Virus record (IMG/VR): IMGVR_UViG_3300022539_000562
From: a virus
Length of the DNA stretch: 64,000 nucleotides
Reading direction: 5' to 3' (one strand)
Under the pieces are notes generated by a model. The model saw only the letters and a program-made list of their open reading frames with translations, was not told the origin of the DNA and ran no database searches. Of this stretch, positions 2,389 through 5,541 are shown in pieces (the first letter of the stretch is position 1; each line of letters opens with the position of its first letter). Made by a program: the position numbers and the translations under genes.

Positions 2389-2464
2389 TGGAGCCAGCAG
2401 TCGGGTTCGAACCGACGACCTGTTCATTACAAGTGAACTGCTCTGCCAACTGAGCTACACTGGC
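2389..2464 (-). tRNA. trnT: tRNA-Thr(UGU)
   Basis: Cloverleaf; GTTCA-CT TGT AA-TGAAC; encoded CCA. Confidence 0.95.
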
Positions 2465-2539
2465 TGGAACTGGTGATGGGACTTGAACCCACAAAACTGA
2501 CTTGGAAGGACAGCATTTTGCCAATTAAATTACACCAGC
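2465..2539 (-). tRNA. trnG: tRNA-Gly(UCC)
   Basis: Loop CT TCC AA; U73; CCA. Confidence 0.9.
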
Positions 2540-2614
2540 TGGGGTAAGTGGCGAGACTTGAACTCGTATCTCATTGGTTCACAGCCAACACGCATTAACT
2601 TATGCTACACTTAC
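2540..2614 (-). tRNA. trnH: tRNA-His(GUG); base at -1 is C, not G
   Basis: Loop CT GTG AA; acceptor GTAAGTG/CACTTAC; C73; CCA. Confidence 0.9.
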
Positions 2615-2615
2615 G

Positions 2616-2689
2616 TGGCAAATCCACAAGGACTCGAACCTTGAACTTCTGTTTTGGAGACAGATATTTTTCCATTAAACTATGGATTT
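2616..2689 (-). tRNA. trnW: tRNA-Trp(CCA)
   Basis: TCTGT-CT CCA AA-ACAGA; G73; CCA. Confidence 0.93.
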
Positions 2690-2765
2690 TGGTAACAGAG
2701 GAGGGACTTGAACCCCCAACCTTCTGGATGTAAGCCAGACAATCTACCATTGATAATACTCTGTT
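2690..2765 (-). tRNA. trnV: tRNA-Val(UAC)
   Basis: TCTGG-CT TAC AT-CCAGA; CCA. Confidence 0.93.
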
Positions 2766-2839
2766 TGGCTGAGAAGAAAGGATTCGAACCTCTATCAATG
2801 GATTCAAAGTCCACTATCCTACCATTAGACGACTTCTCA
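2766..2839 (-). tRNA. trnQ: tRNA-Gln(UUG)
   Basis: GTGGA-CT TTG AA-TCCAT; U1:A72; G73. Confidence 0.93.
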
Positions 2840-2899
2840 TGGATTTAGTTATTATTTAAACTAAATTTTTTATTAAACCATAAAATATAATTATCAAAT

Positions 2900-2976
2900 T
2901 GGTATTCAGGGTAGGACTCGAACCTACATTAAACAGATTCTAAGTCTGCTGTGTTTGCCAATTACACCACCTGAAC
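2900..2976 (-). tRNA. trnL: tRNA-Leu(UAG), short variable loop
   Basis: GCAGA-CT TAG AA-TCTGT; variable region TTAAT (5 nt); A73. Confidence 0.9.
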
Positions 2977-3054
2977 TGGTGCTTGAAACAGGATTCGAAC
3001 CTGTATAAAATGGATTTTGAATCCACTATGTTTGCCTAATTACATCATTCAAGC
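2977..3054 (-). tRNA. trnL: tRNA-Leu(CAA), short variable loop
   Basis: GTGGA-TT CAA AA-TCCAT; variable region TTTAT. Confidence 0.9.
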
Positions 3055-3131
3055 TGGTGTACAAGGTCAGATTCGAACTGACAAAAGATGGATTTTAAGT
3101 CCATTATGTTTACCAATTACATCACTTGTAC
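3055..3131 (-). tRNA. trnL: tRNA-Leu(UAA), short variable loop
   Basis: ATGGA-CT TAA AA-TCCAT; variable region CTTTT. Confidence 0.9.
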
Positions 3132-3208
3132 TGGTAGCGGGAGTGGGATTCGAACCCACGACCTTCTGGTTATGAGCCAGTTTATCTACCTGACTGATAT
3201 ATCCCGCT
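3132..3208 (-). tRNA. trnM: tRNA-Met(CAU), initiator-like; A1 shared with the CCA of the upstream tRNA-Pro
   Basis: CTGG-CT CAT AA-CCAG; GCGGG/CCCGC acceptor; GAAGGTCGT variable/T region as in fMet; A11:U24. Confidence 0.85.
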
Positions 3209-3284
3209 GGTCAGAGTGAAAAGATTTGAACTTTTGACCTCATGTTCCCAAAACACGCGTTCTACCAGACTGAACTACACTCTG
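3208..3284 (-). tRNA. trnP: tRNA-Pro(UGG)
   Basis: CGTGT-TT TGG GA-ACATG; C1:G72; A73. Confidence 0.93.
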
Positions 3285-3361
3285 TGGTGGAACGAACAGG
3301 ACTCGAACCTACATCTTCCTGATTAAAAGTCAGACGCTTTACCATATTAAGCTATCGTTCC
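3285..3361 (-). tRNA. trnK: tRNA-Lys(UUU)
   Basis: TCTGA-CT TTT AA-TCAGG; CCA. Confidence 0.95.
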
Positions 3362-3436
3362 TAGTTGTATTGATGAGATTTGAACTCATATCTTGATGAT
3401 TAAGAGTCATCTGTTTTACCAATTAAACTACAATAC
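3362..3436 (-). tRNA. trnK: tRNA-Lys(CUU), possibly degenerate (3' CTA instead of CCA; 6-bp acceptor)
   Basis: GATGA-CT CTT AA-TCATC; ends ...CAATACAACTA. Confidence 0.75.
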
Positions 3437-3513
3437 TGGCTGTGCAGGTAGGATTCGAACCTACATCTTTGGGATTAACAGTCCCACATTTTACCAATTA
3501 ATACTACTACACA
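3437..3513 (-). tRNA. trnN: tRNA-Asn(GUU)
   Basis: TGGGA-CT GTT AA-TCCCA; G73. Confidence 0.95.
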
Positions 3514-3631
3514 TGGATTATAAGTCCTCACGCTTATAATACTACAATATAAGTCCCTGTGCTTATCAAAGGCAACCTATATAATTTTATCTCTTATCAA
3601 AATTTATGATAATTTTTTATATTAGATATTT

Positions 3632-3720
3632 TGGCGGAAGAGACAGGATTCGAACCTGTGTGGGTTTTACCCCAATGGATTAGCAGTCCATCTCGATAAA
3701 CCTGACTCTGACACTCTTCC
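3632..3720 (-). tRNA. trnS: tRNA-Ser(GCU)
   Basis: ATGGA-CT GCT AA-TCCAT; long variable arm; G73. Confidence 0.95.
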
Positions 3721-3728
3721 TGGATTAA

Positions 3729-4151
3729 TTATTTCTCCTTCAATCCATATTTTCCATCAAACCATTTCAAATAATCATCAATTCCTTGTTTTCCATATTT
3801 ATAATAAATATAATCATATGCTCTTTGATGTAATAATCCATGTTTTGAATTTGATAATAATATAATTTCATCATTATTTTCTTTTAAATAAATATGATGC
3901 TTACATAATATATTTCTTGCTTTTTCTCTAAATTCAGAATTTTGCCATTGTTTCTTTGTTGCTATCCTTAAATTTTTTTTATGTTCATCAGTTAATTTTC
4001 TACCTGTAAGTGCTTTGCTTATTTTTTTTCTAGTTTTTTCAGAATATTTTTTAGTTTTTAAATTATGTCCATTAATATACTTATTTCCTAATTTTACAAT
4101 TTGTCCACATCCACACTTACAATATTTTATTTTAATTTCACATAATTTCAT
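3729..4151 (-). CDS. Free-standing NUMOD3/HNH-like homing endonuclease inside the tRNA array
   Basis: CKCGCG, NUMOD3 repeats (SEKTRKKISKAL, TDEHKKNL), CKHH..SNSKHGLLH. Confidence 0.75.
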   Translation of the reverse strand: MKLCEIKIKYCKCGCGQIVKLGNKYINGHNLKTKKYSEKTRKKISKALTGRKLTDEHKKNLRIATKKQWQNSEFREKARNILCKHHIYLKENNDEIILLSNSKHGLLHQRAYDYIYYKYGKQGIDDYLKWFDGKYGLKEK

Positions 4152-4184
4152 TTTATTCTCCTAATTGATATAAATATTAAATTC

Positions 4185-4270
4185 TGGTAGACGAGGTAGG
4201 ATTCGAACCTACGAAGCTCTCAGCAATGGTATATAAGACCATCTCCTTTAACCTGCTTGGATACTCGTCC
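4185..4270 (-). tRNA. trnI: tRNA-Ile(UAU) with long, Tyr-type variable arm
   Basis: ATGGT-CT TAT AT-ACCAT; 13-nt variable arm TGCTGAGAGCTTC; 86 nt; CCA. Confidence 0.85.
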
Positions 4271-4359
4271 TGGTAGACAGGATAGGATTTGAACCTATGA
4301 AACTTTAATAGTAATGGCATATCAGACCATTCTCTTTGACCAAACTTGAATACCTGTCC
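4271..4359 (-). tRNA. trnI: tRNA-Ile(GAU) with long, Tyr-type variable arm
   Basis: ATGGT-CT GAT AT-GCCAT; 15-nt variable arm TACTATTAAAGTTTC; 89 nt; CCA. Confidence 0.85.
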
Positions 4360-4431
4360 TGGAGACAGAGAGGGGAGTCGAACCCCTGTGGATAGTTTTG
4401 CAGACTACCTCGATTCCAAATCTACTCTGTC
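4360..4431 (-). tRNA. trnC: tRNA-Cys(GCA)
   Basis: GTAGT-CT GCA AA-ACTAT; U73. Confidence 0.93.
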
Positions 4432-4507
4432 TGGTGGAGAAATTTGGAATTGAACCAAAACCTACAGGTCTTCAACCTATCGTGCAGACCTCTTACACCA
4501 TTTCTCC
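4432..4507 (-). tRNA. trnF: tRNA-Phe(GAA)
   Basis: ATAGG-TT GAA GA-CCTGT; G1 is the last base of the HNH stop codon TAG. Confidence 0.92.
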
Positions 4508-4962
4508 TATCTTATTTGATTATGACATCTAATACATAAAGTTAATAAATTATCTAATTTATTATTTTTCTTATTATCATTAATATGATGAACATGCAAT
4601 TTTTGATTATATTTTTTAATATATTCCTCCTGAGTTATTCCACATTTTTGACAAATATGATTATCTCGTTCCCTAATAAATTCTTTTAACTTATTATTAA
4701 ATTCTGGAGAATAAGGTTCAAATGATTTGCCACCTTGCCAATTAGGATTATTTTTACCTCTCATAATTTTTTTAATTGTTTTTCTATATTTAGGATTTTT
4801 CCAAACTTGTTCCATACTTTTACTAACACTTATGCTTATATTTTTCCTATGTTCTTCAGTAAGTTTTTTACCTTTATGTGCTTTACTTATTTTCTTTTTA
4901 ACTTTTTTAGAAACTATATGTCCTTTAACAAATCTTCCTTTATTATTTCTATCTTTGTTCAT
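4507..4962 (-). CDS. Free-standing NUMOD3/HNH homing endonuclease inside the tRNA array
   Basis: NUMOD3 repeats; NNPNWQGG; RDNHICQKC...LHVHHI...NLLTLCIRCH. Confidence 0.85.
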   Translation of the reverse strand: MNKDRNNKGRFVKGHIVSKKVKKKISKAHKGKKLTEEHRKNISISVSKSMEQVWKNPKYRKTIKKIMRGKNNPNWQGGKSFEPYSPEFNNKLKEFIRERDNHICQKCGITQEEYIKKYNQKLHVHHINDNKKNNKLDNLLTLCIRCHNQIR

Positions 4963-4981
4963 TTTTATCCCCCATATTTTT

Positions 4982-5058
4982 TGGCGACACTAACGGGATT
5001 TGAACCCGTATCTCTTGCGTGACAGGCAAGTGTCATAACCTGATTAGACCATAATGTC
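4982..5058 (-). tRNA. trnD: tRNA-Asp(GUC)
   Basis: CTTGC-CT GTC AC-GCAAG; G73. Confidence 0.95.
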
Positions 5059-5133
5059 TGGTAGAACTAGTGAGAATCGAACTCACATCATATGCTTGAA
5101 AGGCATATATCCTAACCATTAGACCATAGTTCC
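5059..5133 (-). tRNA. trnE: tRNA-Glu(UUC)
   Basis: TATGC-CT TTC AA-GCATA. Confidence 0.93.
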
Positions 5134-5223
5134 TGGCGGAAAGAGTAGGATTCGAACCTACGGAAGTTTTACCTTCAATAGTTTTCAAGACTATCACAAT
5201 AAACCTGACTCTGACATCTTTCC
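5134..5223 (-). tRNA. trnS: tRNA-Ser(UGA)
   Basis: ATAGT-CT TGA AA-ACTAT; long arm; G73. Confidence 0.95.
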
Positions 5224-5309
5224 TGGTGGAGAGAATAGGATTTGAACCTACGAACCCATACGAGAGCAGTTTTACAGACTGCCTGCTTTAACCACTTGCA
5301 TATCTCTCC
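5224..5309 (-). tRNA. trnY: tRNA-Tyr(GUA)
   Basis: GCAGT-CT GTA AA-ACTGC; 14-nt arm TCTCGTATGGGTTC. Confidence 0.95.
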
Positions 5310-5386
5310 TGGTACGCCTGGTAGGACTTGAACCTACATCTTGCGGATTAGAAGTCCACTGTTCTATTCCATTAAACTACAGACGT
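5310..5386 (-). tRNA. trnR: tRNA-Arg(UCU)
   Basis: GTGGA-CT TCT AA-TCCGC. Confidence 0.95.
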
Positions 5387-5462
5387 TGGTGGAGATAGAG
5401 GGACTTGAACCCACAACTTCAGGGTGCAAACCTAATGTTTTTCCAATTAAAACTATATCCCC
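5387..5462 (-). tRNA. trnA: tRNA-Ala(UGC)
   Basis: TTAGG-TT TGC AC-CCTGA; G3:U70. Confidence 0.95.
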
Positions 5463-5541
5463 TGGAGTGCCTGATGAGATTCGAACTCACAATCTATGGG
5501 TTCGTAGCCCATTGTTTTATATCCAATTAAACTACAGACAC
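5463..5541 (-). tRNA. trnR: tRNA-Arg(ACG)
   Basis: ATGGG-CT ACG AA-CCCAT; CCA. Confidence 0.93.

Follow-up and report, generated by a model that had tools for sequence, protein, structure and literature searches.

Short-armed leucine tRNAs in a phage tRNA cluster are most likely ordinary members of a widespread family

The tRNA genes considered here lie in a window of 64,000 nucleotides (the whole stretch of DNA that was analysed), which belongs to a viral contig of 115,399 bp with a G+C content of 26% that CheckV estimates to be ~99% complete. The phage encodes a terminase-like protein, a DnaE-type polymerase, RecA and DnaB. Its nearest RecA and DnaE relatives show ~40% identity and are taxonomically mixed, and no close relative emerged when the tRNA region was compared with the phage collection by megablast. 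The tRNA genes form a single cluster that covers all 20 amino acids, with almost no spacers between genes. The features of this region are as follows.

2389-5541, minus strand: cluster of 26 tRNA genes (ARAGORN; every gene also found by the Rfam tRNA model)
2900-2976, minus strand: type I tRNA-Leu(UAG), 77 nt, that is, 74 nt plus an encoded CCA (ARAGORN; Rfam RF00005, 67.3 bits)
2977-3054, minus strand: type I tRNA-Leu(CAA), 78 nt, that is, 75 nt plus an encoded CCA (ARAGORN; Rfam, 63.0 bits)
3055-3131, minus strand: type I tRNA-Leu(UAA), 77 nt, that is, 74 nt plus an encoded CCA (ARAGORN; Rfam, 67.5 bits)
3729-4151, minus strand: unnamed ORF inside the tRNA cluster, with no Pfam match
4185-4270, minus strand: long-armed tRNA-Ile(UAU) with A73, 83 nt without CCA
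4271-4359, minus strand: long-armed tRNA-Ile(GAU) with A73, 86 nt without CCA
4507-4962, minus strand: HNH endonuclease gene inside the tRNA cluster (Pfam HNH and a weak NUMOD3 match)

The HNH gene probably encodes a homing endonuclease. The sole tRNA of the cluster (1 of 26) without an encoded CCA is tRNA-Lys(CUU) (3364-3437, minus strand), whose first base pair is an A.A mismatch.

Leucine tRNAs have, by the textbook, a long extra arm. The three Leu genes lack this type II architecture and, because they are the only tRNAs with a Leu anticodon in the phage genome, the whole Leu set is short-armed. A preliminary description had given them a size of 77-78 nt, 5-nt variable loops (TTAAT, TTTAT and CTTTT) and A73, and all of this was confirmed by ARAGORN, Rfam and direct reading. 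The variable loop is UUAAU in Leu(UAG), UUUAU in Leu(CAA) and CUUUU in Leu(UAA), while the acceptor, D, anticodon and T stems measure 7, 4, 5 and 5 bp, respectively, in each gene. All three belong to the Rfam tRNA family (RF00005), whose model they match at full length (positions 1-71 of 71) with scores above the gathering score of 29 bits and among the highest of the cluster. The minimum-free-energy fold is the cloverleaf for Leu(CAA) and Leu(UAA). Inside the window the Leu genes are mutual nearest paralogues, with 71-78% identity to each other versus 67-70% to the other tRNAs. Positional parsing located U8-G9, A14, A15, G18G19, A20a, U48 and A73 in the three tRNAs, with an A15:U48 pair in Leu(UAG), Leu(CAA) and Leu(UAA) alike and A37 in Leu(UAG); the D loops read AAUUGG(C/U)AA, that of Leu(CAA) with one extra A. 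Each gene thus carries the E. coli-type Leu identity set, A73 plus the elbow elements U8:A14, A15:U48, G18G19 and A20a, and it is the textbook architecture that fails here, not the identity set. Each also shows the features by which we define a type I tRNA-Leu, namely a Leu anticodon, a body of 72-78 nt, a variable loop of 4-5 nt and A73 together with A15 and U48.

The D loops of these genes had also been described as Leu-like. Such loops and A73 are indeed present in all three, but both are shared with the Lys, Phe, Glu, Arg(UCU) and other tRNAs of the phage, and the “Leu-like D loop” was rejected as a discriminator inside this genome because many of its tRNAs carry the same loop. Since non-Leu tRNAs of this AT-rich phage also present A73 and A15:U48, these elements alone do not explain Leu specificity.

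The three Leu genes were compared with ~50,000 phage records by sensitive blastn, and the matching loci were fetched and analysed again with ARAGORN. Nearly all the matches listed were annotated as tRNA-Leu, and many alignments ran without gaps through the variable region. The Leu(UAA) gene matched 405 phage records at E<=1, mostly T5-like phages of Salmonella and Escherichia, and the best-listed T5-like matches were gapless from the D loop to the T loop. Genes of T5-like, Aeromonas, Acinetobacter, Rhodococcus and Lactobacillus phages showed 80-82% identity, gapless over the variable region. ARAGORN identified as type I both Leu tRNAs of Escherichia phage T5_ev212 (UAA and UAG, 77 nt with CCA), two Leu tRNAs of Acinetobacter phage Acibel004, one of Aeromonas phage Akh-2, one of the three of Rhodococcus phage Trina, all three of Lactobacillus phage Bacchae (UAG, UAA and CAA) and both of Leptolyngbya phage Lbo-JY46. 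T5 tRNAs were reportedly shown to accept leucine in the 1970s-80s. A comment on the short arm of phage tRNA-Leu, the T5 genes included, was not found in the literature searched, and the older T5 tRNA papers lay outside this search. The T5_ev212 cluster also contains an 87-nt Thr(UGU), an 83-nt Asn(GUU) and a 91-nt Tyr(GUA), and non-standard variable regions are frequent in classic phage T5, as represented by this cluster.

IMG/VR was searched with a pattern that describes a Leu(UAA) tRNA with an AATTGG D loop and a short variable region. Results showed that the type I Leu(UAA) pattern is present in at least 118 IMG/VR contigs. When the arm length was left open in the pattern, 14 of 118 Leu(UAA) tRNAs were type I, a proportion of ~12% that is conditional on the AATTGG D loop. 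The 118 viral stretches listed for the short-arm pattern contain 1,336 tRNAs, and 74 of them contain at least five, which indicates that these are real phage tRNA clusters. In the same stretches the co-resident Leu isoacceptors were mostly short as well (29 of 35 for CAA and 39 of 52 for UAG), and the Leu set was entirely type I in 39 of the 59 stretches with two or more Leu tRNAs and in 16 of the 30 with three or more. A short arm throughout the Leu family is a recurring state in phages. The preliminary description had proposed a concerted remodelling of the whole Leu family, perhaps as an escape from host tRNA nucleases that recognise shape or as a match to an unusual host LeuRS, and had itself suggested a survey of arm length in phages, counting a common occurrence there against its proposal. 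This survey has now been run and short-arm Leu tRNAs turned out to be common, in T5 as in many other phages, so that a special remodelling lost its support. An unusual host LeuRS is unnecessary, because phages with short-armed Leu tRNAs infect, among others, E. coli, Acinetobacter, Aeromonas and Lactobacillus.

Sequence conservation inside this family was high. A73, A15 and U48 were each present in 99% of the 184 type I Leu tRNAs from the contigs listed (at least 118 in IMG/VR), and likewise in 99% of the 75 non-UAA type I Leu tRNAs among the matches listed, which had not been selected by the pattern; in contrast, the three bases occurred together in only 21% of the other type I tRNAs of the same listed contigs. 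The frequency of the short form among arm-bearing isotypes was 0 of 91 for Ser and 3 of 36 for Tyr in the 118 listed viral stretches. That Ser tRNAs are never short and Tyr tRNAs rarely so is what would be expected if arm loss is tolerated only where the synthetase needs no arm. When the parts outside the variable region were compared, the nearest neighbour was a type I sequence for 45 of 46 type I Leu sequences. These sequences fall into at least two subgroups, one with G9/G12, which includes the T5 and window genes and has a D arm close to that of type II tRNAs, and one with A9/C12-C13, which includes Bacchae and the actinobacterial gene described below.

Position 37 also differed between the two architectures in the viral loci (L007-L124), where A37 was found in 37 of 39 type I Leu(UAG) tRNAs vs 6 of 13 type II ones among the matches listed. 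G37, the site of m1G37, is the usual base of CUN-reading Leu tRNAs, and the type I Leu(UAG) phage tRNAs with A37 may do without the m1G37 modification.

Twelve contigs are related to the phage through a neighbouring 661-aa protein, although their tRNA sets are too diverged for a gene-by-gene alignment. Among these relatives, the Leu tRNAs are all type I in L350, all type II in L353 and L354, and mixed in L355. Arm status shifts readily between related phages. In the two IMG/VR relatives with type II sets (L353 and L354) the cluster comprises 34 tRNAs; its four Leu tRNAs are type II, Ile(UAU) measures 92 nt and Asn(GUU) 83 nt, and Tyr(GUA) is short at 75 nt. The arm comes and goes in several isotypes among related phages.

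The same short-arm Leu(UAA) pattern was also used to scan bacteria, with one genome per species, and at least 120 bacterial stretches carried it. Most of the bacterial matches listed corresponded to a single, highly conserved Leu(UAA) gene of 75-77 nt in G+C-rich chromosomal DNA of Actinomycetota, with representatives in Nocardia, Mycobacterium, Gordonia, Rhodococcus, Arthrobacter, Rothia and other genera of this phylum among the matches listed (loci L229-L348). This actinobacterial gene is isolated and lies in a syntenic chromosomal context. Homologous flanking ORFs were found at about half of the 33 comparable loci, which argues for vertical inheritance and against prophages as its source. 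The remaining bacterial matches listed were cyanobacterial tRNA arrays of 12-27 genes, some of them with every Leu tRNA short. Arrays of 21-27 tRNAs from Nostocales and Synechococcales (L265, L292, L300, L327 and L340) have most or all of their Leu tRNAs in the type I form, with up to four anticodons, and the cyanobacterial arrays look like phage tRNA clusters. A bacterial type I tRNA-Leu has been studied biochemically by Fan et al. (2019, NAR, PMC6614811), who called it rare and the first bacterial case. In that work, which dealt with the CAA species of Streptomyces only, the LeuRS of S. coelicolor leucylated its own type I tRNALeu(CAA) in vitro, E. coli LeuRS did not charge it, and the Streptomyces enzyme owed its activity on the type I tRNA to its leucine-specific domain (Fan et al. 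2019, PMC6614811). Taken together, the family to which the three Leu genes belong is widespread in phage tRNA clusters and is also present in Actinomycetota chromosomes and cyanobacterial arrays.

The meaning of the Leu and Ile codons in the phage was examined by aligning its DnaE with 90 distant homologues. Among strongly conserved columns, L was the residue in 15 of the 17 where the phage has TTA and in 10 of the 11 with CTT, I was the residue in 13 of the 15 with ATT and in 4 of the 5 with ATA, and a codon-versus-residue alignment of RecA pointed in the same direction. Since conserved Leu positions are encoded by TTA and CTT and conserved Ile positions by ATT and ATA, the genetic code of the phage genes reads as standard, in a test that tells the meaning of a codon and not the identity of the tRNA that decodes it. 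Leu codons are used in the phage at frequencies per 1000 of 49.5 for UUA, 10.9 for UUG and 25.7 for CUN, so that the commonest one, UUA, is matched by Leu(UAA). Ile(UAU) and Ile(GAU), the only tRNAs with an Ile anticodon in the genome, are both long-armed. In the 118 IMG/VR stretches, a long arm was present in 17 of 23 Ile(UAU) and in 0 of 45 Ile(GAU) tRNAs among the matches listed; a long Ile(GAU) is the rarer oddity of the two.

On this evidence, the three genes are likely to be ordinary leucine tRNAs that are charged by the host LeuRS. They would be made from the phage tRNA operon as working isoacceptors of the type I tRNA-Leu family, and the host enzyme is proposed as the one that charges them because the phage encodes no LeuRS. 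A LeuRS-like gene was not found in the ~99% complete phage genome by searches for PF00133, PF09334, PF13603 and PF08264, a search that was positive in 14 of 14 control genomes, and with these four class I synthetase families absent, the idea that the phage supplies its own LeuRS or mini-LeuRS to serve these tRNAs was rejected. Recognition by a bacterial LeuRS would proceed through A73 and the elbow (U8:A14, A15:U48, G18G19 and A20a), with no need for the anticodon or the long arm. What E. coli LeuRS requires is A73, contacts with the D and T loops and the hinge elements A15:U48, G18G19 and A20a; neither the arm nor the anticodon is an identity element, and E. coli tRNALeu variants that lack the long arm keep their activity (Giegé and Eriani, PMC9976931). 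The preliminary description agrees with this account, in that it names A73 and the D/T elbow, and not the anticodon, as what LeuRS reads. Given that the Streptomyces type I tRNALeu(CAA) was not charged by E. coli LeuRS, charging by an ordinary LeuRS is nevertheless not to be assumed. Once charged, the three tRNAs would serve the AT-rich phage genes, with Leu(UAA) reading UUA and UUG, Leu(CAA) reading UUG and Leu(UAG) reading CUN.

It is possible, although we consider it unlikely, that arm loss is an anti-defence trait, in which tRNA-Leu without an arm would be immune to nucleases that recognise or cut the long arm and leucine decoding would continue during infection. Such an explanation concerns why the type I form was kept and is compatible with the three genes being ordinary Leu acceptors. 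The precedent comes from another type II tRNA, tRNA-Tyr, whose variable loop is cut by the PtuAB of Retron-Eco7 and by Septu; the tRNA-Tyr of the T5 family withstands the PtuAB/Septu cutting suffered by E. coli tRNA-Tyr through a different variable loop (PMC12673091, PMC13096335). The enrichment of type I Leu in phage tRNA clusters and the lability of arm status among the relatives of the phage would also fit. However, a nuclease aimed at the arm of tRNA-Leu was not found in the literature searched. Bacterial Schlafens were rejected as type II-specific nucleases, since the one studied cuts the anticodon arm and its paper does not report a preference for type II tRNAs, and van den Berg 2023 concerns anticodon loops only. 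In addition, the same type I Leu is a conserved chromosomal gene in many Actinomycetota, where escape from phages is not the reason for it, and the Leu > Tyr > Ser gradient is accounted for just as well by neutral loss wherever LeuRS allows it. The actinobacterial chromosomal gene and the pattern of loss where it is permitted mean that defence is not required to explain the short form. By analogy with tRNA-Tyr one may go further and suppose, more doubtfully, that the short arm was kept for protection and that a phage with armless Leu and arm-bearing Ile tRNAs may have reshaped several tRNA families against shape-reading nucleases.

We regard as very improbable that the three genes produce tRNA-shaped RNAs that are never aminoacylated, such as nuclease decoys, operon processing signals, primers or regulators, or that they are decaying copies. 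The failure of E. coli LeuRS to charge the Streptomyces type I tRNALeu (PMC6614811) and an operon with almost no spacers could be read in this sense, but all the stems are intact, CCA is encoded and the Rfam scores are among the highest of the cluster. Moreover, the tRNA set covers all 20 amino acids and has no Leu tRNAs other than these, their identity positions are strongly conserved in more than 100 contigs, and their anticodons fit the Leu codon usage of the phage, in which UUA reaches 49.5 per 1000.

That the Leu tRNAs are charged with another amino acid, for instance by a Leu/Ile exchange, so that Leu codons are recoded or deliberately mistranslated, deserves hardly any credence: the body types of Leu and Ile do look swapped in this genome, with short-armed Leu and long-armed Ile(UAU) and Ile(GAU) carrying A73, but the comparison of codons with conserved residues in RecA and DnaE led to the rejection of a code change, IleRS requires the Ile anticodon (PMC9976931), the three Leu tRNAs come from a family in which A73, A15 and U48 are each 99% conserved, and the relative L350 pairs three type I Leu with ordinary short Ile tRNAs, which makes the short-Leu and long-Ile traits separable.

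The Leu genes of the window are, then, most likely ordinary members of an under-appreciated family and not the product of a special remodelling. They add three genes to a family that GenBank already documents in T5 and numerous other phages and that has a biochemically characterised counterpart in bacteria. What may be of use to tRNA specialists is that, by these surveys, about 1 in 8 phage Leu(UAA) tRNAs is type I and that whole Leu sets are often type I. The conserved chromosomal type I Leu(UAA) of many Actinomycetota is part of this wider point on the arms of tRNA-Leu. Since the Streptomyces type I tRNA is not charged by E. coli LeuRS, the two type I Leu tRNAs of T5 provide a testable case of LeuRS recognition.

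Among known systems, the type I tRNALeu(CAA) of S. coelicolor (PMC6614811) shares with the window genes the short variable loop, U8:A14 and the elbow, and it is a proven LeuRS substrate. It is encoded in the chromosome beside four type II isoacceptors, whereas the window genes are AT-rich, belong to a phage and make up a Leu set that is type I throughout; furthermore, A73 is not an identity element in the S. coelicolor system (PMC6614811). The Leu(UAA) and Leu(UAG) genes of T5 and other Tequintavirus/Demerecviridae (GenBank) resemble the window genes in their length of 77 nt with CCA, 5-nt loop, A73, A15:U48, AAUUGG D loop, G9 and A37 in the UAG species, and in that the whole Leu set is type I. 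The window Leu(UAA) is ~80% identical to that of T5, gapless from the D loop to the T loop, although T5 belongs to a different lineage with a different host and has two Leu tRNAs instead of three. Bacchae, Lbo-JY46 and Acibel004 are like the window phage in carrying several Leu isoacceptors that are all short, with the same three anticodons in the case of Bacchae, but the Bacchae tRNAs belong to the second subgroup (A9 and C13.A22, as in the actinobacterial gene), while the window tRNAs belong to the G9 subgroup, like those of T5. The animal mitochondrial tRNALeu(UUR) is also type I and is recognised via A73 and A14 without a long arm (PMC9976931); in contrast to the window tRNAs it is organellar, floppy and served by a dedicated LeuRS, and no link of descent was seen. 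Finally, the phage tRNA-Tyr that resists PtuAB/Septu is comparable to the window Leu tRNAs in that both are phage versions of a type II tRNA and depart from the host tRNA in the variable region. In the resistant tRNA-Tyr the arm was lengthened or changed, whereas in the window Leu tRNAs it was removed, and it is for tRNA-Tyr only that experiments have demonstrated the link with defence.
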